DNA of 10,968 bases from Candidatus Iainarchaeum sp. (GCA_028693335.1 JAQUVR010000016.1:1-10968), one strand, 5' to 3'; counted from the stretch's first letter, positions 1 to 10,968 are shown. Numbers and translations: made by a program. Notes: generated by a model from the sequence alone, not told the origin.

Positions 1-523
1 GGTCGTAAACCTCATCGAACAGGCAGTTCAGGCGGCCTTCCACATTGGATGTCTCGTTTATGTGACCCAAAGTCTTTCCCGAAGGATCGTCGTCAAGCAT
101 CGCCGGCCAGATCTCCATAGGCATCGGGTTGCCGGTCCAGCCCTCGTAGGCAGTCGTGACGAACGGGCCCCTGAACGCTGTCGCGTCTGTACCGTCAATG
201 TCCACCTGCGCGGAATCGAGATAGCCGCCGAACATGAGCGCTCCCAGCCAGATGAACTCCGTGCCCGTTCCGCCAGGCATCTCGCCCGAAACAGCGGTCT
301 TGCCCGTGCAGGGGTCTTTCAGACCGAGCCACGGCTCGCCAAAAAATCCCATGTTGGATGTGTTCAGCCATAACAGGCCCGCCCTGTGCACCCTGTATTC
401 CATCGTCGGCCGGAGAGCTTTTGACGGAGCAAGATCAAAGCTCCGCAAACCGTATGACGGATCCGGCGCCGGAAAGAGGCTTATTGCGAATATGAAGATC
501 AGTAAAAGATTTATCTTTATCAT
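1..523 (-). CDS. Secreted protein of unknown function, N-terminal part (gene continues past the left window edge)
   Basis: The minus-strand frame is open from ATG at 523-521 to base 1; it is absent from the ORF track only because no stop lies in the window. Hand translation begins MIKINLLLIFIFAISLFPAPDPSYGLRSFDLAPSK (signal-peptide-like) and continues ...EYRVHRAGLLWLNTSNMGFFGEPWLGLKDPCTGKTAVSGEMPGGTGTEFIWLGALMFGGYLDS.... It is GC-rich like the right flank. The + strand ORFs 62..373 and 234..536 are its antisense shadows. I recognise no family. Confidence 0.65.
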   Translation of the reverse strand, partial: MIKINLLLIFIFAISLFPAPDPSYGLRSFDLAPSKALRPTMEYRVHRAGLLWLNTSNMGFFGEPWLGLKDPCTGKTAVSGEMPGGTGTEFIWLGALMFGGYLDSAQVDIDGTDATAFRGPFVTTAYEGWTGNPMPMEIWPAMLDDDPSGKTLGHINETSNVEGRLNCLFDEVYD

Positions 524-624
524 GCCGATAATTTAAACATACACTGAAAAATATGCAATTCTATATTAAATTAAATGATGAAGACGGTCATGGTTAATGG
601 TGTATAGAAAATTGCTTTCTGTAA
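515..624. repeat. Repeat B, copy 1 (5' region and first three codons of the left flank gene)
   Basis: 515-572 matches 4983-5040 with one mismatch over 58 nt. Looser similarity with indels then runs through gacggtcatggttaat to attgctttctgtaa (611-624 vs 5077-5090). Confidence 0.85.
530..558 (-). promoter_or_regulatory. Candidate sigma70-like promoter for the left flank gene, implying a leaderless or near-leaderless mRNA
   Basis: The minus strand reads TTGCAT, 17 nt, TAAATT, atcggc, ATG. The -10 element ends 6 nt before the start codon and there is no Shine-Dalgarno sequence. An identical arrangement is present in repeat B copy 2. Confidence 0.3.
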
Positions 625-721
625 CCGTACGATATTCTCGTACACTTCGCATAAGGTTCTCATAAGTTCGCATTATTTTTGCATAATAGGTTTTAGTGCT
701 CATAGCTATTAAATCACTTAA

Positions 722-808
722 AACTCTCTTAAATTATTTTCTATTTATTTAAGAATTAGCTACAAACTCTCTTAAACTCTCTTAAAATTCGCTAAAAACT
801 CCCTTAAT
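722..808. repeat. Iteron-like direct repeats AACTCTCTTAAA (three exact copies, one degenerate)
   Basis: Exact copies lie at 722-733, 765-776 and 775-786, with a degenerate copy AACTCCCTTAAT at 797-808. Start-to-start spacings of 43, 10 and 22 nt are close to whole helical turns. They sit in a 590-bp region with no convincing ORF. Confidence 0.45.
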
Positions 809-1214
809 TAATCTTTTATTGCATTTCAATATAGATAAAACATAATTTAGCAATAGTAATATTTTCGGTAGAATAATTAAAAGAAAGTGGAATCGACTCA
901 GAAAGTGGGTTTTACTAACGATTGGTGAGGCTCGGCGCGATTTGTCCGGGGTGGCTACAGATATGTAGGTGCTACCTAATGTAGCGTTGCGATCCGTAAT
1001 CAATACATTTTGGGATCATATAAATACAGCATCGGTTTCAGGATCGCCAGTACGAAATAACGGCAATGGCAAAAAGCAAACTGTTATCTCTCTGTTTCTT
1101 TATACAATTTAACAAAATTATGTGTCAAAAAACAGTGTACACTACAGTTAGGAAAAACGAATCTTCATCGGGAGTATTTTTTGCGTTATTATCTGTGATA
1201 AAATCATTAGTTAC

Positions 1215-2204
1215 CTATAATTTCTTATATTTTGCTATAATTTCTTTTAAAGCTTTAGTTTGTGCGTCATTCAATGTCATTTCATAAGCATATTTTCCAA
1301 CAAATCTTACATCAATTTTATCTGATTCAGCAATTTTAAAGATAGATTTATCTAAATTATCGATACTATTATCAGACCACTCTTTTACACCGTTGCCAGA
1401 GGTATCAGTTTGTTTTTCAGGATAGTCACAATTAATTTCAATCTGTATATTATCAGCATGTACTATTACTTTGTCATAAAACATCCAGTTATCATTGCTA
1501 TATTGAGTTCTTAACCTTAGAAATTTGCTACCAGATTTATTTTTCACTATATAGAATTCAAAAGTTAATAAAGCCCTACCTGAATGTTGACAAGTGAGTC
1601 TTTTTGTCTCATAAAAAATACAGGATTGCATCTTATCTTCAGTTTCAGAAATAAATTCTTCAGATTCATATTCGTAAAGATATTTGTTATATATATTTCT
1701 TAATTTGATTGAATCATTTTTATTCAAAAATAAATTATCGAAATCATCTTGGATGCTGGAAATCTTTTTACCTAAAGATAGTGATTTAGTTTTATTAAGG
1801 GTTGATTTTAAATTACTATTAGAAATTTTATCAAGTTCACTGATTTTATTGTTACTATTTTTTACTAAATCACTGTTGGGGTAAAATGTAGTAATCATGT
1901 TAAATAACAAAAACGCTTTCTTCAATTGGTTTAATTTCAGGAATTCTATTCCTTTTTTATAATAGTATTCAGGTGTTTGGGTAGCTTCATTGTATCTGAC
2001 CTGTAATTCATTCTTTTCTTTTGTGCAATTCTCAATCTTACTAGATAAATCATTGTGTTGAGTTTTTAATTCTTCAATTTCCTGTAAAAGTTTAACTTTT
2101 TCACTTTCAGAGTTACTATATTTAGAATTGAGCTCAGTGAATTCTCTTTTTGAAACACAGCTAATTAGGAATAAAGCAAATGTTAATAGTATTATTTTTT
2201 TCAT
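1215..2204 (-). CDS. Lipoprotein with a coiled-coil N-terminal half, function unknown
   Basis: 329-aa ORF. The N-terminus MKKIILLTFALFLISC has a lipobox-like LISC, and GAGG lies 8 nt upstream of the ATG. The first ~70 residues after the Cys are heptad-like and rich in E/K/L/Q. I cannot name a family for the C-terminal half. Confidence 0.75.
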   Translation of the reverse strand: MKKIILLTFALFLISCVSKREFTELNSKYSNSESEKVKLLQEIEELKTQHNDLSSKIENCTKEKNELQVRYNEATQTPEYYYKKGIEFLKLNQLKKAFLLFNMITTFYPNSDLVKNSNNKISELDKISNSNLKSTLNKTKSLSLGKKISSIQDDFDNLFLNKNDSIKLRNIYNKYLYEYESEEFISETEDKMQSCIFYETKRLTCQHSGRALLTFEFYIVKNKSGSKFLRLRTQYSNDNWMFYDKVIVHADNIQIEINCDYPEKQTDTSGNGVKEWSDNSIDNLDKSIFKIAESDKIDVRFVGKYAYEMTLNDAQTKALKEIIAKYKKL

Positions 2205-2398
2205 TTTTTACAACCTCGCTATTTAAATTAAAAAACACATATTGCCTTATCTGTCATGGTAAATGCCCACTAGGTAAAGATAACAAGGGATAGGGTATCA
2301 TGTCAATGTTCTCTGTCTATAGTGATTAGTTTTATGATAGATTATTGATTTTTCCATTTTGCTGTCTCGAAAGTGTTCAATAAATGTCTAAAGAAAAT

Positions 2399-3760
2399 TT
2401 AATCTGGAAATTCATTTCCTTTTTTTCTATTTAATTTTAAATCCTTTGATTTTAAGAATCCAAATTGTGCGTTTAAAGAGTCGTAGTATTCTTCGTCTTC
2501 TTTTGTCCAGTGTGAGCAGTCTAAGTATATAAAATCTTCAGAAGTTCCTTCGTTTAATTTTGGTGGTTCAGTAGCTATTCCAATTATAGAATGCAATTGC
2601 TTAAATTTATTCTTGGTTACCCCACAAGCTATTTCAAGTAATTGTTGCCTATAAGGACGATATTCGTTGTCGTAGTCGGAAATAGGATCAATCTTTAATT
2701 GGAGAAATAGATATGCCCTGTTTTTGTGAAACGATTCTATGTAAGTTAATAAACGAACAAAGGGTTGTTGCGATTGAGGAAAATTATTTATTGCACGCAC
2801 TATTCTATCTGAAAGTTCCCTTCTATGAAAACGTGGCTCCATTGCCATATAATATATTGCATTTTTATTGTTAAATATAGATGCACCACGAGTGATACCA
2901 TCGAGGGCATATTGGCACGTTTTCTGAATTAATCCATCCCAAACGTAAGAAATTTCATCAGATTTCTTTTTCCTTTTAAAAATATCACTTTGTTCGAAAT
3001 CTTTCCATTCACCTTCACCGATAATAATCATATTTACTTTTTTATCCTTGTAACCTATGAAATGAGTATGATTCGATTCATCGTAATTTAACATGTAATG
3101 TGCGAGTAAATCTTCTTCACCACAGTATATTAAAGCCTCATAGTTATTAATTGCTGATATTTTTGCCTCCAAGTATCTGGAAAAGTCATAAAATGTATCG
3201 AGTTCTTTAAATATCAATTCAAGGTTTTCGCTATCAAAAATATGTACAGGATTGTTTTTATCTAAAGTTATTAAAAATGGAAAAGGAATATTGTCAGATT
3301 TATCACCATAAATTATAGCCAAACTACCAAAAACATTTTCATCAGAAAATTCCCTACATGCATCTTTAGCTCCATGAGCGATTACAATTTTGTGTACAAT
3401 CATATTATTCGTATCAATTTTTATAGGGAAAGGAGATTTTAATTCCACATCAAGAAATATTTTAGCATTTCTTCTTATATATTTTTCAGCACCATGTGCA
3501 GTTTTAATTTGCATGTCAATTGCTTTTTTTTTCCATCTTTCCCAGTTTGTTATTGTGTCACCTTCTTTTTTTAATGATAAATTCTCTCTATCATAAAAAA
3601 TAAATACATGATTGCCGAAAATAGCCAGTAAATCACACAACTCTTTTTTATCATCTTTGATTGGATTGGGGTAACTCCATAATTTCAAGAAAGTATTTTC
3701 ACACAATTTAGCTAGAAGATTTTCCGTAGGTGTTACACCTTCTGATTTCGTGATCTTCAT
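2399..3760 (-). CDS. Hypothetical cytoplasmic protein (453 aa), family not recognised
   Basis: Long ORF with GGAG 5 nt upstream of the ATG and no signal peptide or TM segment. The N-terminal segment LCENTFLKLWSYPNPIKDDKKELCDLLAIFGNHVFIFYDRE loosely recalls the strand core of restriction-endonuclease-like folds, but I cannot identify catalytic residues. Confidence 0.8.
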   Translation of the reverse strand: MKITKSEGVTPTENLLAKLCENTFLKLWSYPNPIKDDKKELCDLLAIFGNHVFIFYDRENLSLKKEGDTITNWERWKKKAIDMQIKTAHGAEKYIRRNAKIFLDVELKSPFPIKIDTNNMIVHKIVIAHGAKDACREFSDENVFGSLAIIYGDKSDNIPFPFLITLDKNNPVHIFDSENLELIFKELDTFYDFSRYLEAKISAINNYEALIYCGEEDLLAHYMLNYDESNHTHFIGYKDKKVNMIIIGEGEWKDFEQSDIFKRKKKSDEISYVWDGLIQKTCQYALDGITRGASIFNNKNAIYYMAMEPRFHRRELSDRIVRAINNFPQSQQPFVRLLTYIESFHKNRAYLFLQLKIDPISDYDNEYRPYRQQLLEIACGVTKNKFKQLHSIIGIATEPPKLNEGTSEDFIYLDCSHWTKEDEEYYDSLNAQFGFLKSKDLKLNRKKGNEFPD

Positions 3761-3806
3761 GAAATCTCCGCATTGTTTTTTAAATGATGCTCAACAAATA
3801 CTAGTT

Positions 3807-4280
3807 CTACATATCTAAACTTTCAAGTTCCCAAGAATCGCCGTTACTTTTTAGAACACAAATATAATACGTTCGGATATTTGCGCCAAAACTATTTTCA
3901 GAATCAACATAAGCTGATACCTTGTATTTATTGTTTCCTAAATTTGATACTTTCGCGTCCAAAACAGAACAGAAATCTGCGGTAGCCGGTGCTTTTAAGT
4001 TTTGTTCAACAAATCGCTGGCTCATCACAAAAGCCATTCCGCTATCATCTGAATTACGACGAGAACTGCTTGATTTCTGTTCAGGTGGAGGTCTATATGA
4101 TGATGACCCGCCATATTTGGCTGAAAAAGAAAATAATTTGACAAGCAAATATACGAGTATAATCAAAACTAAATAATTTAAGCAACTGCCCTTTTTTTTG
4201 GGAATATAACCGCAATTGGGGCAGGATTTAGCTTTTGTGCTAATATCTTTTCCGCATTCTTTGCATTTTCTTAATGCCAC
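3807..4280 (-). CDS. Membrane-anchored zinc-ribbon protein with a small extracytoplasmic C-terminal domain
   Basis: GTG start 4 nt after AGGAGG. It has a CKEC-x10-CPNC zinc ribbon, a hydrophobic helix LNYLVLIILVYLLVKLF, an S/P-rich linker and a C-terminal globular part of about 80 aa (...YKVSAYVDSENSFGANIRTYYICV...). Confidence 0.8.
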   Translation of the reverse strand: MALRKCKECGKDISTKAKSCPNCGYIPKKKGSCLNYLVLIILVYLLVKLFSFSAKYGGSSSYRPPPEQKSSSSRRNSDDSGMAFVMSQRFVEQNLKAPATADFCSVLDAKVSNLGNNKYKVSAYVDSENSFGANIRTYYICVLKSNGDSWELESLDM

Positions 4281-4288
4281 AAAACCTC

Positions 4289-4816
4289 CTATTCATTTGC
4301 CCTTTCAGCCAACATTCTGCCTGTAATAATGCCAAGTGTAATAGCAATGACAACTCCTGCAACAATTTTAAAATTATCATTGCCCTCTCGGTCTTTTATA
4401 TTTTCTTCTTTAAAAGCAGAACTAGAGTTGATTTTTATGTTAGGATTTAATGTCTTGAAAAATTCCGCTTGGCAACTATAACAAGAATTAAGCATATCGG
4501 GTCTACGTTCGTCAATTATGTTTACAATATCAGCCCCCAAATAGCTTGCTTCTTCTCGTAACATTCTAATCGCATCGGATTCTCTACAACCAGCGGTAAA
4601 GGCATTGTCTCTTAATTTGATTTCTCTAATTTTCTCATAGGCATTAGAATTAAAGCTTGAGAATTTCACAATAGATATTTCTGCTGTCGATTTTATATCT
4701 TGTGAGTTCTGTTCTTTTTCGTAGCCCGATCGTTTTACTGTATAAGATGTACAGCCTGAAATAAAGAAAACATTCAGGTATAATACGATCATCAGAAACA
4801 CACTACTCTTTAACAT
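4289..4816 (-). CDS. Lipoprotein with a C-terminal TM helix, function unknown
   Basis: The N-terminus MLKSSVFLMIVLYLNVFFISGC has a lipobox-like ISGC, and the C-terminal stretch IVAGVVIAITLGIITG is hydrophobic. The Cys-containing middle (AGCRESDAIRMLREEASYLGADIVNII...SCYSCQAEF) loosely recalls RcsF/DUF4156-type lipoproteins. Its TAG stop overlaps the AGGAGG of the next gene. Confidence 0.75.
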   Translation of the reverse strand: MLKSSVFLMIVLYLNVFFISGCTSYTVKRSGYEKEQNSQDIKSTAEISIVKFSSFNSNAYEKIREIKLRDNAFTAGCRESDAIRMLREEASYLGADIVNIIDERRPDMLNSCYSCQAEFFKTLNPNIKINSSSAFKEENIKDREGNDNFKIVAGVVIAITLGIITGRMLAERANE

Positions 4817-4935
4817 TTTTATCTCTCATGTTTAAACTAACAGCAACTCCTCTGTTTTGAACAAGTTTTTCGCATACTGTACGGACAAACGTCATTTTGT
4901 TTTTTTGTATATATGAATTATCCGTCTGCCATTTT

Positions 4936-4988
4936 AAAAATTATGATAATTTAATTATGATGTCAACGAGTTTCTTATTTTTCTTTAT
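4936..4988. repeat. Repeat A, short copy (promoter segment only) ending in the junction core CTTTAT
   Basis: aaaaattatgataatttaattatgatgtcaacgagtttcttatttttctttat differs by one base each from 7453-7505 and 10663-10715. Confidence 0.9.
4938..4966 (-). promoter_or_regulatory. Candidate promoter (TTGACA, 17 nt, TAATTT) for the module I operon
   Basis: The minus strand reads TTGACAtcataattaaattatcaTAATTT, about 120 nt upstream of the 4816 start. The same sequence is conserved in three copies in the window. Confidence 0.5.
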
Positions 4989-5090
4989 CATGCCGATAAT
5001 TTAAACATACGCTGAAAAATATGCAATTCTATATTAAATTATTTGGAGACGGTCATGGTTAATACGGCAAATTATCATTGCTTTCTGTAA
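4983..5090. repeat. Repeat B, copy 2 (internal; fused on its left to repeat A and on its right to the Bro-N pseudogene)
   Basis: See copy 1. This copy retains the ATG ATA AAG of the left flank gene, but here it opens only a 16-codon chimeric ORF (MIKKNKKLVDIIIKLS). Confidence 0.85.
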
Positions 5091-5506
5091 ATAGGTTTTC
5101 ATAGCTCTGTCGAATGAAAGTTCAGGATCTCCAGTCTCTTCGATTCTTTCATAACCCGTTTTAGCAAGCCAAAGCTTAAAAGGTTCCGCCCTTTGGCGAA
5201 GGAATTGACTGAACTACACGCAATAAATCTTCTGTTGAGAAGCAATCTGTAGCATAAAACTTGCCGTCACTAGCCTCAAATTTCAGTTGTACGATTTTTT
5301 CGTACACCTCACTTCCTTCTTTTTTGAGCTTCTTCTTTAAGTCGCTCCAATAACGTTTGGAAATAGATGAATCAGTCAGAATCTCTATCATATCAATAAT
5401 TGAAAAATACCAGAGTTCATTATCTCCGTCCCAAAATCGCCGGACTTGTTTTTGGTTGTAGCACAGATAATTTGTGTCTTATTACTTTTTTCTCTGCTGT
5501 TGTCAT
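5081..5506 (-). pseudogene. Bro-N/DinD-like pseudogene (3'-truncated, at least two frame disruptions)
   Basis: Nucleotide- and protein-level paralogue of the N-terminal ~135 codons of 8234..9124. AAGGAGG precedes the ATG at 5506-5504, but the homologous frame (NQKQVRRFWDGDNELWYFSIIDMIEIL...) is offset by one base from that ATG. An extra base near 5188-5191 ends the tracked ORF at PSPKGGTF*, and homology resumes in another frame (AEPFKLWLAKTGYERIEETGDPELSFDRAMKTYLQK). The gene stops at the junction with repeat B. Confidence 0.85.
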
Positions 5507-5632
5507 TTTATTCCCTCCTTTTCTGAAATATAATAAATCATTTTTCGTTAGGAAAGAAGCTTAAGCAGACATATCATTTTTTATTTTTCCTCTTATTTAA
5601 TTAACCGCACTCTCTCGTTAACCTTGCCCATA

Positions 5633-5704
5633 ACGGTCATGAAAAAAAGATCACAAGCAAACATAACACGGTAAAGTCATATAGCCAATGTTAGCGGTTG
5701 TGTG
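5633..5704. repeat. Repeat E, copy 1 (~70 bp, between the cargo genes and the Bro-N copy)
   Basis: It shares acggtcatg, a similar cacaag...cat segment, an exact 11-mer tagccaatgtt and ggttgt with 9145-9220. By eye roughly two thirds of positions are identical, with a 4-nt length difference. Confidence 0.6.
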
Positions 5705-5707
5705 TAA

Positions 5708-6499
5708 TTATTCAATTTTCATTCGAGAATTATTCTTTAGAAGTACTGCTATGTCATTCCTTTTTTTTATTATTACAGTATCAAAAATATCTTGGATAAA
5801 AGGAGCGATTAAATATTGAGAATTTTCTCCAGGTGATATTCCATTGTCTAAAGCATCAATATAATCACTTGACATCATATAATGGTCATTTAAATAGAAT
5901 ACATAAGAAAAATGTTGAATAAAAATATCATTTAAATCAGAAGAAAACAAATCTAACATTTTAAGTCTTACAGGATTATAGATCTCGTTATCATTAGAAA
6001 GTACATTATGAAAAAAATTGTAATGAGTATTATCGTTGCACCTTTCTCTAATCTTTTTGTACCTTTTGTCTTTATCAAGTAGTAAAGTAATCGGTTTCAA
6101 CAGACAAGAATTTTTTATATAGCTTGAAATTATCCTATATTCGGGAATGGTTTCAATTCCCTCTATCCACTTGTCAATCTGTTTAACTATAAGATTATCG
6201 ATACTGTAATTATTTTTTAGATAAAGATTTAAGTAGACATTTATAAATGTGGAATCATAATATTTTCTTAGAAGAGCATACGCATCATTAATACGACCTT
6301 TTAATAAAACATCCCGTATTGAATCAAGCGTTCCATGCATCGATGAGAAAATATGAGCATCAAGGTTGTTTTCGATCTTAGTTCCTAGTAATATAAAATA
6401 CATGATAGAGTCAGATAATGAATTGTAAAAATCTGCAATCTCTTTCAACTCAGAGAATACTATGTGCCCAGTATAATTTTTATTTATAAAATTATTCAT
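5708..6499 (-). CDS. Hypothetical cytoplasmic protein (263 aa) with a possible HEPN-like R-x5-H motif
   Basis: The ATG overlaps the upstream stop (ATGA at 6496-6499). No signal peptide. Motif KKIRERCNDNTHYN (R153-x5-H159, nt 6023-6043) and an earlier helix GRINDAYALLRKYYDS recall HEPN/Abi-type proteins. This is motif-level only. Confidence 0.7.
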   Translation of the reverse strand: MNNFINKNYTGHIVFSELKEIADFYNSLSDSIMYFILLGTKIENNLDAHIFSSMHGTLDSIRDVLLKGRINDAYALLRKYYDSTFINVYLNLYLKNNYSIDNLIVKQIDKWIEGIETIPEYRIISSYIKNSCLLKPITLLLDKDKRYKKIRERCNDNTHYNFFHNVLSNDNEIYNPVRLKMLDLFSSDLNDIFIQHFSYVFYLNDHYMMSSDYIDALDNGISPGENSQYLIAPFIQDIFDTVIIKKRNDIAVLLKNNSRMKIE

Positions 6500-7212
6500 T
6501 TTGAATTTTGATAGCTAGTCAATATTCCATTTTCAAAGTATAAATATAAATTACTATAAACCCATTGTTCATGGATACCCCAATCACCGACAGTTTTATT
6601 TATATTATTGGGGTTACCTAAACTTATTGAGGCCATTTCAACCGTCATTCCCACCCAGTAATAACCATTAAATAAGTCCTCGCCGATATTTTTCCCGAAT
6701 TTATCCGTTAAAAACTTTTTGTACTCTTGTTTCTTCTTTTTATTAAAATTGATCTCATTTTCTTGCTTTTCTTTAATTATATTTTCTCTGAAAAGTATAA
6801 TATCTTCTGTTTCGGATAAAATAGACTCAAAAACATAACCGATATGTTCGTCTTTTTTTACAAGCCATGAATTTTCTTTAACAAATTTTTCGTTAAAACA
6901 GTAATCTAGCAAAATTAAAGTATCATTTATTTCAGTCTTGAATAAAATATCTGAGTACATTGAATTTTCTTTTCTAATCTCACCTTTTGATTTGCAAACA
7001 ACTTTTATAGAATTTTTCCCTTTCAACTCAATTAGTTTTTTTTGCATAATGTATTTATCCAAGTCATTTTTTACTATCTCTAATGAATCTGTTTTTGACT
7101 TTATTAGATTTTCTAATCGCAATCTATCTATTTTTAAATTCGCGATATTAGAATCTATACTTTGACATAGCAGAGCACTTTGAATAACGAATAATACAAT
7201 AATGAACTTCAC
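6496..7212 (-). CDS. Secreted protein with a coiled-coil segment and a C-terminal BamE/SmpA_OmlA-like motif
   Basis: GTG start 5 nt after AGGAGG. Signal peptide MKFIIVLFVIQSALLCQS. The C-terminus GYYWVGMTVEMASISLGNPNNINKTVGDWGIHEQWVYSNLYLYFENGILTSYQ fits the GMT...LG.P...E.W.Y...YL.F.NG.L pattern of small BamE-like domains. Confidence 0.75.
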   Translation of the reverse strand: MKFIIVLFVIQSALLCQSIDSNIANLKIDRLRLENLIKSKTDSLEIVKNDLDKYIMQKKLIELKGKNSIKVVCKSKGEIRKENSMYSDILFKTEINDTLILLDYCFNEKFVKENSWLVKKDEHIGYVFESILSETEDIILFRENIIKEKQENEINFNKKKKQEYKKFLTDKFGKNIGEDLFNGYYWVGMTVEMASISLGNPNNINKTVGDWGIHEQWVYSNLYLYFENGILTSYQNSK

Positions 7213-7262
7213 ATGATCCTCCTATAAAAAACAATTTAAATTACACATTTCCGCTAACGAGC

Positions 7263-7288
7263 GGCTAAGCGAATGGTTTCGTTTAGCC
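7263..7288 (+). other. Conserved 11-bp-stem hairpin in the repeated leader
   Basis: ggctaagcgaa-tggt-ttcgtttagcc. All pairs are Watson-Crick except one G-T, which is a G-U wobble only if read as + strand RNA. It is conserved at 10524-10547, with a degenerate second copy at about 7313-7337. Confidence 0.45.
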
Positions 7289-7454
7289 GTGACATTTGCG
7301 CCTGTTTGCGGAAGCTAAGTGAATGGTTTCGTTAAGACTGCATGTTTGAACCTATTTCAAGAAGCTATATGCCACAGCGGTGCTTTTTTCTTCTGAATGT
7401 GAAAGAGCCTCATGTGTTTACCTTGTTCGATCTGTATTCTTATCTCAGTCAGAA

Positions 7455-7483
7455 AAATTATGATAATTTAATTATGATGTCAA
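7455..7483 (-). promoter_or_regulatory. Candidate promoter A (TTGACA, 17 nt, TAATTT) upstream of the module II cargo
   Basis: Identical hexamers and spacer to 4938-4966 and 10665-10693, followed by a ~240-nt leader before the GTG at 7212. Confidence 0.5.
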
Positions 7484-7516
7484 CGAGTTTCTTGTTTTTC
7501 TTTATTGAAAGATATA

Positions 7517-7573
7517 TTACATTAGTCCGTCAGCGAGGATCTTGAGGCCGATGAGGATCAATACAATGTCGTT
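7517..7573 (-). pseudogene. Displaced remnant of the mntP 3' end (last ~17 codons plus stop)
   Basis: The reverse complement reads DIVLILIGLKILADGLM*, against GGIVLILIGLKILADGLM* in the intact gene. There is no upstream coding continuation. Confidence 0.9.
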
Positions 7574-7584
7574 CGAGTAATATA

Positions 7585-7613
7585 TTGATTTAAGCGAAAA
7601 AAATTTGTATATT
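7585..7613 (+). promoter_or_regulatory. Candidate promoter for the + strand antitoxin-like/DUF2442 genes
   Basis: TTGATT, 17 nt, TATATT, ending 45 nt upstream of the ATG at 7659. Confidence 0.4.
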
Positions 7614-7658
7614 GAGATCAAGTAAAGAAAAGAAGCTTATTTATAAAGAAGTGATTAT

Positions 7659-7853
7659 ATGAAACTGCATACTCAGATCATAGAAAAAGAAGGAAAGAAA
7701 GAATTTGTTGTAATACCTGTCAAAGAATTCAAGATATTAGAAGAAATGATAGAAGATTACGAAGACCTTAGAGACTTAAGAGAAGCAAAAGCAAGCTCAA
7801 AAGGCGAAAAGGCAGTTCCTATTAAAAAGGTAATAAAAAGCCTGAAACTGTAA
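7659..7853 (+). CDS. Phd/YefM- or RelB-like type II antitoxin-like small protein
   Basis: 64 aa. KEFVVIPVKEFKILEEMIEDYEDLRDLREAKASSKGEKAVPIKKV matches the common short-antitoxin pattern (a strand, then an acidic EDxEDL helix, then a C-terminal tail). Confidence 0.6.
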   Translation: MKLHTQIIEKEGKKEFVVIPVKEFKILEEMIEDYEDLRDLREAKASSKGEKAVPIKKVIKSLKL

Positions 7854-7867
7854 TTAATATAGCCTAG

Positions 7868-7957
7868 ATGGAAATTCATAAAGAAGACCTGCAGGCTGAT
7901 TGGGATTTAGCAGTTAATGGTAAAACATCATTTCTGATAACGAGGTTAGACCAATGA
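7868..7957 (+). CDS. 29-codon ORF between the antitoxin-like gene and DUF2442 (doubtful)
   Basis: MEIHKEDLQADWDLAVNGKTSFLITRLDQ. Its TGA overlaps the next ATG (ATGA at 7954-7957). It sits where a toxin gene would be expected but is too short, and I do not recognise it. Confidence 0.2.
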   Translation: MEIHKEDLQADWDLAVNGKTSFLITRLDQ

Positions 7958-8193
7958 GAATAAAAAAAATTGAAGCTATGTCAAATTATATCCTGAGGAT
8001 CGAATCTGAGGGAGGTCAGATCGGAGATTTTGATGTTAAGCCTTACTTGGCTTATGAAGCTTTTATTTATTTAAAAGACATTGACCATTTCATGCGCGTC
8101 AGAAACGGCGGATATTACATAGAGTGGGACTGCGGTGCTGATCTTTCTGCCGATACTATTGAAGCAAAATGGAAAGTGCTCGTATCGGAATAA
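7954..8193 (+). CDS. DUF2442-family small protein
   Basis: 79 aa, with GAGG 7 nt upstream. The pattern ...NYILRIESEGGQIGDFDVKPYL...F..LKD...F..V...G..IEW.CGADLSADTI is typical of DUF2442. Confidence 0.65.
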   Translation: MRIKKIEAMSNYILRIESEGGQIGDFDVKPYLAYEAFIYLKDIDHFMRVRNGGYYIEWDCGADLSADTIEAKWKVLVSE

Positions 8194-8233
8194 CTAGCTC
8201 AATTGCTGTAAATGATCACTGCTTTCTGCAAAA

Positions 8234-9124
8234 TTATTCTTCGTCATCTTTTTCAGTCTTATCTAAAAAGTTATTTTCCTTACCGGTTAACAAGGTCTTT
8301 GCATTTTCCGGGCTTACTATACTTTCACCTGTCTGCTTTTCGATTTCTATTCTTGCCTGCTTTGCCGCAAATCCGCCCTTTTTTGCAACTTCAACATTTT
8401 CATGAAAACCATCCGGTTTCTGCTTTTTAGATATTTCTGAAGTCGAAGCTTCCGCAAGCATATTTAAAACCAGTTCAAGGTTAGTCATATTGTCTCTCAA
8501 GTTTTCTTTCTTGAGATTCTTCAGCTTTTTATATTGCTTTACCGATTTATCTGACCACGCTTTTGTAATCTCATCTGTCAAAATAGCATAATCCTGCTCT
8601 TTCTTCATTCCTCTTTCTTTCCACTCATCAGTAAGCTCTTTCCTGACTTCAATACTCTTTAACCTCTGATTGATCCATTCCTTAGAATACCCTTTCTGTA
8701 AATAGGTTTTCATAGCTCTGTCGAATGAAAGTTCAGGATCTTCAATTTCGTCTATTCTTTCTCTTCCAACTTGAGCTAACCATAACTTGAACGGTTCTGC
8801 TTTCGGAGACGGAACAGACTGAATAAGCCTGAACAGTTGCTCGGTATCAGCGACATCGGTAAGCCTCATTTTGCCGTCAGCAGCCATCATTTTCAAACTG
8901 TGACAATTTGTCACGGTTTCATTTCCCTCTTTTTTCAACCGTTCTTTCAATTTACGCCAATATGCACCTGAGTCAATACTTTCAGTAAGCACTTCGATCA
9001 CATCAATAATAGAAAAATACCACTGTTCATTATCTTCGTCCCAGTGGCGACGGACTTGTTTTTGATTGAATAAGATTATTGAGTTTGAGTTTTTCATTGT
9101 ATGTTTAAGCTCCTTTATTAACAT
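8234..9124 (-). CDS. Bro-N domain / DinD-like (phage antirepressor-like) protein
   Basis: WYFSIIDVIEVLTES...YWRKLKERLKKEG...LKMMAADGKMRLTDVADTEQLFRLIQSVPSPKAEPFKLWLAQVGRERIDE is the widespread Bro-N-type N-terminal module. The C-terminal half (...NLELVLNMLAEASTSEISKK...AKKGGFAAKQARIEIEKQTG) resembles the DinD C-terminal region. The track start at 9145 is a TTG. I prefer the first ATG at 9124 (AGGGGTGAAA upstream); 9097 is an alternative. Confidence 0.8.
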   Translation of the reverse strand: MLIKELKHTMKNSNSIILFNQKQVRRHWDEDNEQWYFSIIDVIEVLTESIDSGAYWRKLKERLKKEGNETVTNCHSLKMMAADGKMRLTDVADTEQLFRLIQSVPSPKAEPFKLWLAQVGRERIDEIEDPELSFDRAMKTYLQKGYSKEWINQRLKSIEVRKELTDEWKERGMKKEQDYAILTDEITKAWSDKSVKQYKKLKNLKKENLRDNMTNLELVLNMLAEASTSEISKKQKPDGFHENVEVAKKGGFAAKQARIEIEKQTGESIVSPENAKTLLTGKENNFLDKTEKDDEE

Positions 9125-9144
9125 TTTCACCCCTAAAGCCTTCA

Positions 9145-9220
9145 ACGGTCATGGCTAAAAGCACCACACAAGTCACAATGAACCAGTCAGTTTCATGTAG
9201 CCAATGTTGTCTGGTTGTTG
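9145..9220. repeat. Repeat E, copy 2
   Basis: See copy 1. It sits between the stop of the FGE-domain gene and the start of the intact Bro-N gene. Confidence 0.6.
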
Positions 9221-9270
9221 TTATAAATATCGTTAATTGCCTAAGCTACACAAGTTAGAATGAAATACTA

Positions 9271-10431
9271 TCATGGTGTTCTCACAATCCGAAAGCCCAA
9301 GTCGTAAGTGCTGCTGTTCGGGCTGAAGTATTTGTAGCGATAAGCAACACGACAGGTGCTGGTACTACTGGCCCAACCACCACCATGTAGAACACGATTA
9401 GTCCCATTAGTAGGTCCATAAGGGTCAGTCACTGTTCCCAGATCATTACAAGTAGTGTAATAACTGCTTCCATACCAATCCCAACACCATTCATATAAAT
9501 TTCCAGTCATGTCATAAATTTCAAGCTGATTAGGTGCTTTTGTACCAGTGGGTTTTGAACCGTAGGGATTATTATTCTCGGTATACCAAGCAACTGTACT
9601 AACTGTATCGCTACCGCTGTAACGATAATCGTCAGTATGATGACTACCACCTCTCGCAGCATACTCCCACTCTGCTTCTGTAGGTAGTCTGTAGCCATTG
9701 GCAGACCAGTTACATTCTACAGCATTCCATGTAGAGTCTGAACTAGTCGGCACCGTTCCCCAGATATCTGGATCTGTTGAACTATTTATAGTATAACACG
9801 GAGTGATGCCTTCGGCTATGCTCCTTTTATTACAATAAACCATTATTTCATACCAACATACAGAGTAAGCCGGATAATTGTCACCCGTTCCGTAAGAACT
9901 CCAATCCTTAGCAGGCATATAAATAGTCCATTCAGACTGTGTTACCTCGCATACTCCCATGTAAAAATCACTAACTGTCACACTATGTAAAGGTGTTTCA
10001 TCAATAGAACCTTCGTTAAAATGATCACCCATCTGGTATGTACCTCCTTGAACAAAGACCATCTCAAGGGAGTCTGTTACAGTTATTACTTTGCTATCTG
10101 TATCTGAATCCTGCCCATCGCTAACTGTAACCGTAATTGTATAAGTATAGTTGGTATTTGGAGCTGTCCAAACTGTACTTGAACCAGTTGTTGTAGAAAG
10201 ATCACCACCTGTCGATATCCAGCTGTAGGTCAAACTATCTCCATCATCGTCTGTTGCGCTACAGCTTAAATCTACTGTTCCACCTTGCTGAACAGATGTC
10301 GCCGATGCTGTCATACTGTTAATCAACGGAGTATTGTTTGTCGGTTCTGTACCTCCGTCATCATCAGAGCATGACAAAAAAATCATTCCTAGTAGCATAA
10401 AAGTAAGTAAGATAGGTATCCATTTTTTCAT
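9271..10431 (-). CDS. Lipoprotein with a PKD-like Ig domain and a C-terminal formylglycine-generating-enzyme (SUMF1/FGE-sulfatase, C-type-lectin fold) domain
   Basis: Preferred start is the ATG at 10431, 6 nt after AAGGAG, giving MKKWIPILLTFMLLGMIFLSC (lipobox). PKD-like segment: SATDDDGDSLTYSWISTGGDL...WTAPNTNYTYTITVTVSDGQDSD. FGE-domain hallmarks: MVFVQGGTYQMGD, ETPLHSVTVSDFYMGVCEVTQSEW, GYRLPTEAEWEYAARGG, YDMTGNLYEWCWDWY, RVLHGGGW and LGFRIVR. Confidence 0.85.
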   Translation of the reverse strand: MKKWIPILLTFMLLGMIFLSCSDDDGGTEPTNNTPLINSMTASATSVQQGGTVDLSCSATDDDGDSLTYSWISTGGDLSTTTGSSTVWTAPNTNYTYTITVTVSDGQDSDTDSKVITVTDSLEMVFVQGGTYQMGDHFNEGSIDETPLHSVTVSDFYMGVCEVTQSEWTIYMPAKDWSSYGTGDNYPAYSVCWYEIMVYCNKRSIAEGITPCYTINSSTDPDIWGTVPTSSDSTWNAVECNWSANGYRLPTEAEWEYAARGGSHHTDDYRYSGSDTVSTVAWYTENNNPYGSKPTGTKAPNQLEIYDMTGNLYEWCWDWYGSSYYTTCNDLGTVTDPYGPTNGTNRVLHGGGWASSTSTCRVAYRYKYFSPNSSTYDLGFRIVRTP

Positions 10432-10523
10432 TTTGTTCTCCTTAGATTTAAATATCTTAGTTAAGCTTAGGCACATCTTTTATCCATAATATTTTGTAAC
10501 AATTGCACCTGACGTGCGGCTAA

Positions 10524-10547
10524 GCTAAGCGAATGGTTTCGTTTAGC
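10524..10547 (+). other. Conserved leader hairpin, second copy (10-bp stem)
   Basis: gctaagcgaa-tggt-ttcgtttagc, with the same G-T position as in copy 1. Confidence 0.4.
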
Positions 10548-10664
10548 CTCGACGTTTGAACCTATTTCAAGAAGCTATACGCCACAGCGGTGCTTTTTTC
10601 TACTGTATGCGAAAGAGCCTCATGAGTTTACCGTGTTCGATCTTTATTATTATCTCAGTCAGAA

Positions 10665-10693
10665 AAATTATGATAATTTAATTATGATGTCAA
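10665..10693 (-). promoter_or_regulatory. Candidate promoter A (TTGACA, 17 nt, TAATTT) upstream of the FGE-domain gene
   Basis: Starts 33 nt downstream of the mntP stop on the minus strand and is followed by a leader of about 230 nt. Confidence 0.5.
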
Positions 10694-10726
10694 CGGGTTT
10701 CTTATTTTTCTTTATCTGAAGATAAA

Positions 10727-10968
10727 TTACATTAGTCCGTCAGCGAGGATCTTGAGGCCGATGAGGATGAGTACAATGCCGCCGACGAGTTCGGCGCTCT
10801 GTCCCAGCCTTCTGCCGGCGCGCTTGCCGATGTTGACGCCGACGAGAGATATGACGAAGGTGGTGCATGCGATCAGGACGGCGGGATAGTATATCTCAAC
10901 ATCAAGAATAAGTATGCTTAAGCCGGCAGCGAGGGCATCTATGCTGGTCGCTACAGCCATAACGAGCA
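10727..10968 (-). CDS. mntP: Manganese efflux pump MntP, C-terminal part (gene continues past the right window edge)
   Basis: AVATSIDALAAGLS...GVNIGKRAGRRLGQSAELVGGIVLILIGLKIL matches the second repeat of the MntP/DUF204 family (compare E. coli MntP AVATSIDAMAVG...[20 protein letters not shown]). The frame stays open upstream of the tracked Met to base 10968. GC-rich. Confidence 0.85.
   Translation of the reverse strand, partial: LVMAVATSIDALAAGLSILILDVEIYYPAVLIACTTFVISLVGVNIGKRAGRRLGQSAELVGGIVLILIGLKILADGLM

Follow-up and report, generated by a model that had tools for sequence, protein, structure and literature searches.

The stretch analysed here (the window; 10,968 nt, JAQUVR010000016.1:1-10968) runs from the 5′ part of a host gene that we call X to the 3′ part of the host gene mntP, both on the minus strand. 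The GC content is 58% at 1–508 and 55% at 10727–10968, i.e. within host DNA, and 33% across the AT-rich interior of 10.2 kb. On balance we read the window as a tandem island of integron-type cassettes that occupies the mntP–X spacer of a Candidatus Delongbacteria bacterium and that is not a self-contained mobile element. A preliminary description of the window had drawn attention to four junctions, at which three flanking arms (A, B and C) and gene X exchange partners at one short core. Host genes and repeated elements are given below, where J1 to J4 denote the junctions and L followed by a number denotes other loci used for comparison.

1–523 (−): 5′ part of host gene X, ATG at 521–523; secreted protein, 1064 aa in L011
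509–521 (−): core copy 1, GATAAAGATAAAT, covering codons 2–5 of X; preceded by TTATC-ggcat; native B|X join, not recombinant (J1)
521–582 (−): B arm copy 1, with the promoter-like region of X (TTGCAT-N17-TAAATT) and its start codon; homologous to L016 8165–8236
4936–4976 (−): A arm copy 1, with a promoter-like TTGACA-N17-TAATTT and two direct repeats of ATTATGAT; only 46 nt shared
4977–4989 (−): core copy 2 at the hybrid junction B|A (J2); exchange confined to GATAAAGA
4989–5090 (−): B arm copy 2, a duplicate of the X promoter and ATG, followed by a 3′ piece that resembles a truncated attC (not significant in the covariance model, E = 4.7)
7453–7493 (−): A arm copy 2, from repeat comparison
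7494–7506 (−): core copy 3, AATAAAGAAAAAC, slightly degenerate, at the C′|A junction (J3)
7506–7571 (−): C′ and its 3′ tail, a displaced duplicate of the last 54 nt of mntP
10663–10703 (−): A arm copy 3, from repeat comparison
10704–10716 (−): core copy 4 at the C|A junction (J4), preceded by TTTATC-ttca; palindrome TTTATC/GATAAA; junction also present in L011–L015
10727–10968 (−): 3′ part of host gene mntP, a manganese efflux pump (Pfam PF02659, E = 5e-23); 98.8% identical to L137

The four junctions share a core of 13 nt (ATTTnTCTTTAT on the plus strand, GATAAAGAnAAAT on the gene strand, i.e. the minus strand), and the shared sequence extends from the G before the core to AAAT. The core pattern, ATTT[A/T]TCTTTA on the plus and TAAAGAnAAAY on the gene strand, was found at 509–519, 4977–4987, 7494–7504 and 10704–10714, i.e. 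at the four reported junctions and nowhere else in the window, and always in the same orientation. By chance 0.29 ± 0.52 occurrences are expected, and none of 200 shuffled sequences reached four. The copies of the A arm (4936–4981, 7453–7498 and 10663–10708) are 96–98% identical, those of the B arm (521–573 and 4989–5041) 97%, and C (10716–10781) and C′ (7506–7571) 91%. In every arm comparison the identity switches partner at the core. Read along the gene strand, the junctions are C..TTCAG ATAAAGAAAAAT AAGAAAC..A, C′..TTTCA ATAAAGAAAAAC AAGAAAC..A, B..GGCATG ATAAAGAAAAAT AAGAAAC..A and B..GGCATG ATAAAGATAAAT CTTTTAC..X. On these points the preliminary description holds: the junctions are real and lie at the coordinates given there, the shared sequence reaches 13 nt, and the core overlaps the start of the left gene. 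The ATG of this gene (521–523) lies in the B arm and its codons 2–5 lie in the core.

The junctions are not, as had been proposed, four separate partner swaps. The A|C junctions at 7499 and 10709 are not independent, since both are enclosed by one 260-nt direct repeat (7312–7571 and 10522–10781, 91% identical). At A|B the variable base is the A-side version, so that the exchange must fall inside the 8-nt segment GATAAAGA, which includes the TCTTTAT named in the preliminary description. What is left is a native B|X join, a C|A join present twice as part of a longer repeat, and B|A as the only true hybrid, i.e. the only one for which an exchange is needed.

A comparison anchored on mntP orthologues gave further states of the locus. 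In the insert-free relative L016 (mntP 89% identical at the amino acid level, X 88.8% at the nucleotide level) the gap between mntP and X measures about 215 nt and holds neither A arm nor core. About 55 nt upstream of the X ATG in L016 are homologous to B, with a score that none of 500 shuffles reached. By this homology, B is the promoter and start codon of X itself and X|B a native join; the earlier view of X|B as a recombinant junction, with B as an element arm, is not upheld. As B is native to X in L016, an empty site X|C need never have existed, and none was found. The paradox that such a site would leave X without a start codon thereby disappears. C′, which in the window is still in frame and reads IVLILIGLKILADGLM*, is a displaced spare copy of the mntP 3′ end.

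In L011–L015, which stem from five samples and have flanks 94–97% identical (94.5% at the nucleotide level for X in L011), the core forms direct repeats that bracket a single-unit locus: mntP is followed by C-core-A (87 nt), a restriction-modification module, one attC site and B-ATG-core-X. In L011 the module (10740–13446; also in L012–L015) consists of a D12-class methyltransferase, an HNH nuclease and an N4/N6 methyltransferase, after which the one attC follows; it looks like a multi-gene defence cassette. In L137 the mntP stop is followed by unrelated DNA, a reversed Phd gene, a C′ homologue decayed by deletions and substitutions, the core, a 31-nt A arm, a Bro-N fragment and then a J2-type B arm directly on X. 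The variant of B found as copy 2 in the window is the one that adjoins X in L137. Compared in this way, the window corresponds to an L137-like locus plus unit 1 (4468 nt) at the core of X. L004 carries C′-core-A behind a DUF4160-DUF2442-Bro-N block that starts 52 nt after another A arm, and L003 matches the window over 6599–9240 and diverges beyond. At least five arrangements were thus found between the same flanks among close relatives. Other homologues of X were only distant and stood in other contexts, such that no further states of the locus were gained.

A block of about 50 nt (ggcttaatggacaaaatcgggtgctaaaatc...) was found in opposite orientations relative to the genes in L003 (2643–2695) and L137 (1650–1700), so that inversions, too, have taken place at this locus. 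Downstream of mntP unrelated genes are found in L017, L138 and L139; in more distant Delongbacteria a MazE/PIN pair or other accessory genes lie just 3′ of mntP (L017 10630–11273; L138 10586–13963). The mntP 3′ flank thus seems to be a hotspot for insertions in the phylum generally.

The window is of metagenomic source, and strain variants sharing A and B flanks might have been concatenated by the assembler, with no tandem array on any one molecule. The contigs L001, L002 and L004 break inside A or B arms, which shows that these repeats confuse assemblers, and several variants co-occur across samples. We nevertheless regard a chimera as highly improbable. The 13-nt core is shorter than any assembly k-mer, so that k-mers across B|A and C′|A must come from real reads. 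The A|B junction is also present in the independent Logan contig L002, and C′|A in L003, L004 and L137, so that the junctions themselves are no artefacts of assembly. Single-nucleotide polymorphisms between the A copies and the 91% identity of the 260-nt repeats furthermore make the copies resolvable.

Between the repeated elements the window carries the following cargo.

583–660 (−): possible degenerate attC remnant (GGTTA...TAACCATGACCGTC), closing unit 1; 13 of 15 nt in common with the attC 3′ end
1215–4816 (−): unit 1 cargo, four genes of 175, 157, 453 and 329 aa; lipoprotein-like and zinc-ribbon proteins
5081–5623 (−): truncated Bro-N paralogue (5081–5520) and upstream region; cassette start TTATGGGC directly after attC; 89% identical to L119
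5624–5700 (−): attC, loop subtype b; covariance model 51.3 bits, E = 2.7e-12; two L-stem pairs broken
5701–7257 (−): complete integron-type cassette with genes of 238 and 263 aa; start G|TTAGCGG (GTT at 7258–7256)
7659–7853 (+): Phd/RelB-like antitoxin gene, within a block at 7659–8193
7858–7953 (+): DUF4160 3′ remnant; intact DUF4160 in L004, upstream of DUF2442
7954–8193 (+): DUF2442 gene, within the block at 7659–8193
8234–9145 (−): Bro-N domain gene; PADLOC candidate defence family PDC-S13, near full-length, E = 3e-136
9136–9216 (−): attC, loop subtype a; covariance model 81.7 bits, E = 3.1e-21
9271–10476 (−): FGE-sulfatase/PKD-domain lipoprotein gene, with many homologues in array loci and non-canonical module boundaries

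An element with two defined ends (..nAACATTGGCTAnATG and TTTTAGCCATGAYCGTT..) was found 3′ of cargo genes, at 9208 and 5692 in the window and in L011. Scanning metagenomes for this element gave 237 copies on 119 stretches, with at most 6 copies per contig, all on one strand and with a median spacing of 1131 nt. The consensus is that of an attC site, with an outer R stem nAAC/GTTn, an inner L stem TGGCTA/TAGCCA, an asymmetric internal loop between them and a variable centre that falls into three subtypes. The stems are invariant since the retrieval pattern demanded them, and covariation can thus not be assessed from these copies. For 118 cassettes we compared the 14 nt after GTT with the complement of the 14 nt before the cassette's own AAC. 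On average 9.7 of 14 positions matched, compared to 5.05 ± 1.9 for re-paired ends, and the first five positions matched in 92–98% of the cassettes. The two flanks of a single attC copy agreed at 5.0 of 14 positions, i.e. at the control level. That cassettes pair with their own end while the flanks of one copy do not places the crossover at G|TT and is the permutation signature of integron cassettes. In the window, start and end of the cassette at 7257–5701 are complementary at 11 of 14 positions (controls 5.05 ± 1.9).

A covariance model built from the retrieved copies detected two attC sites in the window, one in L011 and none in the insert-free relatives; it detected nothing at the possible remnant at 583–660. 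End-to-end folding was significant for the L011 copy (z −3.4), with z of −0.5 and −1.9 for the copies in the window. Homologues of the Bro-N, Phd, DUF2442 and FGE genes lie inside arrays, and in the array loci none of module A, core, B and C was found. The Bro-N cassette starts with TTGAAGGC directly after attC, and the copy in L004 has the same start with another left neighbour. The cargo consists of integron-type cassettes, a point that the preliminary description had missed.

No tyrosine recombinase was found in the window, in the L011 insert or in the 10 kb that flank the homologous L011 locus to its left and to its right. The idea of a self-contained integrative element with its own integrase is contradicted by this, as neither the three units of the window nor the L011 insert encode one. 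An attC cluster without an integron integrase is known as a CALIN (Cury et al. 2016, PMC4889954), for which two or more attC sites must lie no more than 4 kb apart, with no integron integrase nearby. With the sites at 9136–9216 and 5624–5700 lying 3.4 kb apart, the window holds a CALIN in this sense.

Every unit opens with the 13-nt core and the promoter-like module A, and units close in copies of the host flanks, namely B (X promoter and start codon) and C′ (mntP 3′ end). We consider it somewhat probable that the island is a strain-variable, integrase-less cassette cluster of three tandem units which grew by accretion and in which a single exchange at short homology took place. Cassettes would be delivered or turned over in trans by the Xer-like cassette recombinase of the phylum (see below), encoded elsewhere. 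The island itself would have gained its units one by one as versions of the entire locus from mntP to X recombined out of register, with sister chromosomes or imported DNA of other strains as partners. The 260-nt repeat of C′, core and A, with its 91% identity, would fit a homologous or duplicative joining. The A|B junction, which has the form expected for an exchange between X|B and A|C and represents a tandem-unit junction as had been proposed, would arise from one exchange within the 8-nt GATAAAGA between the two cores that bracket a one-unit locus such as L011. Such an exchange may have been unequal and independent of RecA, or else an illegitimate recombination facilitated by homology and anchored in X or B; a dedicated integrase would not be involved. 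Since every inserted unit brings its own B, X keeps its promoter and start codon throughout.

Several observations weigh against such an accretion history. At either end of the island 12 of 13 nt agree, each time behind TTATC-N4/5, which is longer and more structured than typical chance microhomology. All insert-bearing relatives have the motif at both ends and L016 has it at neither, a pattern for which the accretion reading does not account. The core-side edge of A is invariant, and only one independent A|B event is documented. Module A has no significant homology to the L016 spacer, the array loci or recombinase promoters, and those pieces of the B arms that resemble attC remnants lack significance. 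The FGE module breaks the cassette rule, with a start/end complementarity of 4 of 14. Finally, the order of the units over 10 kb is that of the assembly and was derived from sequence only.

The first of these points leaves room for other readings. In one of them the core would be a true att site, and a dedicated site-specific recombinase, encoded at some other place in the genome, would move units that have A and B as their borders. A|B would then be an attP-like or tandem junction, the 7–8-nt GATAAAGA the overlap region, and each unit would carry a copy of the X promoter. The core is highly non-random and always found in one orientation, its identical segment of 7–8 nt suits the overlap region of a tyrosine recombinase, and direct repeats of it bracket the single-unit locus of L011–L015. 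At each live junction it is part of a small palindrome, TTATC-N4/5-GATAA, which occurs 1.3 times per 100 kb in arrays and there never with the core attached. The edges of the blocks speak on both sides. According to the preliminary description, switch points scattered among homologous loci, rather than fixed at the core, would point to microhomology-mediated events. The core-side edge of A lies at the core in six sources (window, L002, L003, L004, L011–L015 and L137), as that description expected. All other edges are scattered: the distance between the core and the far edge of A is 31, 46, 52, 87 or at least 190 nt, and further block edges lie at 5090, 7858 and 9240. A recombinase is found in none of the units, and with B being native, core-to-core excision would cost X its promoter and start codon. 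The right half of the palindrome is the core itself, and the spacers between TTATC and the exchange differ (ggcat for B, ttca and gttc for C), with no inverted matching half-site on the A or X side. Furthermore, there is a single independent hybrid junction, C′ shows at least one accretion step that was not made by the core alone, and no sign of spread is seen, as the A arm occurs at one locus in the genome collection and is absent from the JGI and IMG/VR scans. We therefore regard a dedicated att site as unlikely, albeit the most serious competitor of the accretion reading.

An alternative that makes use of the cassette system itself is that the cassette recombinase acted on a genomic secondary site of GWT type (attG-like), the units being oversized cassettes inserted at G|ATAAAGA. 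A G precedes ATAAAGA directly at all live junctions, GAT fits the GWT consensus reported for genomic insertions by IntI1 (bioRxiv 10.1101/2022.09.11.507474), and cassettes and attI-like heads of the system are present within the island. We consider this quite improbable: attC should abut the target AT, whereas the nearest attC-like piece is about 75 nt away at J1 and J2 and no such piece is found at J3 and J4. Unlike real cassettes, the units have starts that are not complementary to their own ends; a three-base motif discriminates little, and the recombinase in question is not a canonical IntI.

The A arm contains ATTATGAT twice in each copy (4940–4976, 7457–7493 and 10667–10703) with a pitch of 14 nt, over the −35- and −10-like hexamers. 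A promoter scan gave no overall enrichment (55 compared to 43 ± 6.5) and did not list TTGACA-N17-TAATTT of the A arm, such that the promoter role of A is something we only infer. In the genome collection the A arm was found at a single locus and in only two species representatives, both metagenome-assembled genomes (MAGs) of Candidatus Delongbacteria/UBP11. A arm, core and palindrome are absent from 607 kb of integron arrays. An exact match to the A arm was found neither in JGI metagenome contigs nor in IMG/VR, in a scan that missed the JGI contigs L012 and L014, which carry the arm, and whose collection is thus incomplete for this lineage.

Several candidate identities for these sequences were rejected. 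A Xer/dif-like site in the A arm, as in IMEX-type elements, does not fit, the ATTATGAT repeats being direct and not inverted and the switch point lying about 20 nt off. A similarity of A to native spacer DNA as in L016 was not significant (140–259 of 500 shuffles reached the score). Neither was a derivation of A from the promoter or 5′ untranslated region of the recombinase gene and of the core from the 3′ end of the uvrD gene that precedes intact platforms; the best ungapped match in this comparison, 19 of 26 positions, was picked post hoc and equalled by 16 of 300 shuffles. As attC halves, the CCATGACCGTC pieces of the B arms were likewise not significant by the covariance model. Finally, a tRNA, tmRNA or known RNA family as target or as origin of the repeats was rejected, as none was found; no known RNA family matched in the window.

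The core copy on the X side (509–521) reads GATAAA GATAAA T, i.e. Fur-box-like hexamers beside a manganese-efflux gene, and is a possible operator. The E. coli Fur box is built of GATAAT/ATTATC hexamers, and mntP is a metal-homeostasis gene. The 13-mer might in this sense be a shared operator rather than a recombination site, with GATAAA hexamers and the upstream TTATC forming a Fur-family-like box that controls X and promoter A, and with the A|B hybrid as the product of a chance exchange between two such functional boxes. The doubled hexamers on the X side and the two ATTATGAT repeats over the −35/−10-like hexamers of A agree with this, and conservation of the motif at both places would be accounted for. 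The box is a candidate only. An identity of 12 of 13 nt is above that usual between operators of one regulon, and the C|A copy lies upstream of the −35 element, which is odd for a repressor box. As an explanation of the hybrid we judge the operator improbable, and it would complement the accretion of cassette-bearing units rather than replace it.

Within the accreted units two heads resemble the attI region of an integron platform, and a recombinase gene was found in front of arrays elsewhere.

7256–7398 (−): attI-like head of unit 2, hairpin repeats at 7264–7287 and 7314–7337; degenerate end of a recombinase gene
10511–10608 (−): attI-like head of unit 3, ATACAGTAG at 10600–10608, then a hairpin
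L029 1672–2535 (−), L033 3810–4646, L121 80–766, L140 3275–4036: array recombinase, Xer-like

The head of unit 2 is 74.6% identical to L038 4804–4940 over 138 nt (E = 2e-17), and for the similarity of the unit 2 and unit 3 heads to L033 and L038 none of 1000 shuffles reached the score. In intact platforms the region matching L038 lies 3′ of the recombinase stop codon. ATACAGTAG in unit 3 corresponds to the last 9 nt of the recombinase gene, i.e. two codons and the stop. Two of the three units thus keep an attI-like head along with a 9-nt relic of a deleted recombinase gene. These codons also end a mini-ORF (open reading frame) of seven codons at 10600–10623 on the minus strand (ATG agg ctc ttt cgc ata cag TAG), which may be left over from an internal deletion in the recombinase gene. 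A second decapitated platform is seen in the 495-kb contig of L038 (around 4800–5010 on the plus strand), where the last 16 or so nt of the recombinase gene lie beside a NUDIX hydrolase gene and, in gene orientation, the recombinase stump is followed by attI-like hairpin repeats and a cassette.

In three loci (L029, L033 and L121) a tyrosine recombinase of 278 aa is encoded directly upstream of the first cassette and on the strand of the array. The stretch after its stop codon contains hairpins and then ..GTT, which joins the first cassette by the G|TT rule; the first cassettes behind the three heads match at 11, 8 and 8 of 14 positions, with the first 5–6 positions perfect. In L029 and L140 the recombinase gene lies downstream of a gene for a 657-aa UvrD helicase. 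PF00589 and PF13495 are recorded for all close homologues of the recombinase, and box II (HSLRHSFA) is present. The IntI-specific insertion (intI_Cterm; about 35 residues near patch III) is lacking: residues 179–201 of the recombinase (23 aa) stand opposite residues 181–246 (66 aa) of IntI4 (VchIntIA, 2a3v), and the protein aligns continuously with the XerC-like structure 4a8e. With TIGR02249 it scores 217 bits in two stretches, below the cutoff of 265. Such recombinases had been found only beside fewer than three attC sites and were judged not to be IntI (Cury et al. 2016, PMC4889954); here, in contrast, recombinases lacking the insertion head canonical arrays of many cassettes. Close homologues are annotated in several Delongbacteria MAGs, and together with their position beside uvrD this points to an intact system that belongs to this phylum and would be sited elsewhere in the chromosome. 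In the literature searched, no paper was found that treats Delongbacteria and integrons together.

With this enzyme at hand, one may also ask whether the palindrome and core together (TTATC-N4/5-G|ATAAAGAnAAAT) form a working second-tier site, at which the Xer-like cassette recombinase would excise and re-insert whole promoter-led units instead of single cassettes, each unit bringing a spare promoter of the neighbouring gene so that the host gene is at no time silenced. We regard this as a rather speculative extension, somewhat less credible than a dedicated att site.

Further observations concern the cargo. The unit 1 cargo block is also present in L001 and L002, and for the genes of units 1 and 2, considered as possible defence genes, neither PADLOC nor Pfam gave a family. 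About 600 nt at 600–1214 contain no convincing ORF and matched no Rfam family; AAACTCTCTTAAA repeats lie at 721–798, and 627–723 is about 80% identical to stretches of the array loci L067 and L069. A Phd/RelB-like gene takes the place of the 5′ part of DUF4160 in the window as well as in L137, with the block edge exactly at 7858. The truncated Bro-N paralogue is joined to the B-arm remnant at the 10-nt TTACAGAAAG (5081–5090, given for the gene strand), which occurs also at 615–624 in the other B arm and at 8695–8704 within the intact Bro-N gene. This is a second case of partners changing at a short stretch in common, and it has the look of a deletion at microhomology.

In most CALINs nothing hints at where they came from; the island illustrates how a cassette cluster devoid of an integrase can come about and expand. 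Downstream of mntP it also documents a hotspot of insertion, for which at least five states are seen among close relatives and which holds, among other things, a restriction-modification module and a candidate defence gene. Its junctions furthermore gave access to integron-like arrays that form a large family in Candidatus Delongbacteria. The IntI-specific insertion is demanded by current detection tools; if a Xer-like enzyme runs these arrays, part of the integron diversity is being missed, and the need of the insertion for attC recombination would have to be revisited. It is the Xer-like platform that deserves further study above all; the junction pattern itself is of moderate interest.

Among known processes, tandem duplication at short repeats and homology-facilitated illegitimate recombination resemble the island in that one junction falls in 8 identical bases with longer homology on one side (X, B) and in that the outcome is a tandem array of allelic versions of a locus. 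The repeat in the island is, in contrast, unusually long (12 of 13 nt), associated with a palindrome and present at both ends in every insert-bearing relative. Tandem accretion at the 3′ ends of genes for tRNA or tmRNA likewise leaves a partial 3′-end duplicate such as C′ between blocks, with the live gene intact and the blocks in direct orientation. The blocks of the island differ by having no integrase, C′ lies inside a 260-nt repeat together with core and A head, and the other end of the island duplicates the promoter and start codon of the neighbouring gene. Insertion into attG sites and the resulting SALINs (Loot et al., bioRxiv 10.1101/2022.09.11.507474) share with the island that cassettes are found outside a platform and beside host promoters, at a target of GWT kind, and that rearrangements are possible after imprecise excision. 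Here, in contrast, no attC is present at the core junctions, and the repeat is a multi-gene unit with a promoter-like head and not a single cassette. Closest in kind are the CALINs, with at least two attC sites on the same strand within 4 kb, each 3′ of its genes, with no integrase nearby, with cassettes that have homologues in complete arrays, and with AT-rich accessory cargo including toxin-antitoxin-like and defence-candidate genes. The island departs from them by the lack of the IntI-specific insertion in its cognate recombinase, by keeping a platform relic (attI-like head and the last 9 nt of the recombinase gene), of which 95% of CALINs are devoid, and by its build of three repeated units with the same promoter-like lead module and host-flank copies at their close. 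Repeated promoter-like heads, units closed by host-flank copies and a visible platform stump are the traits that make this island unusual.

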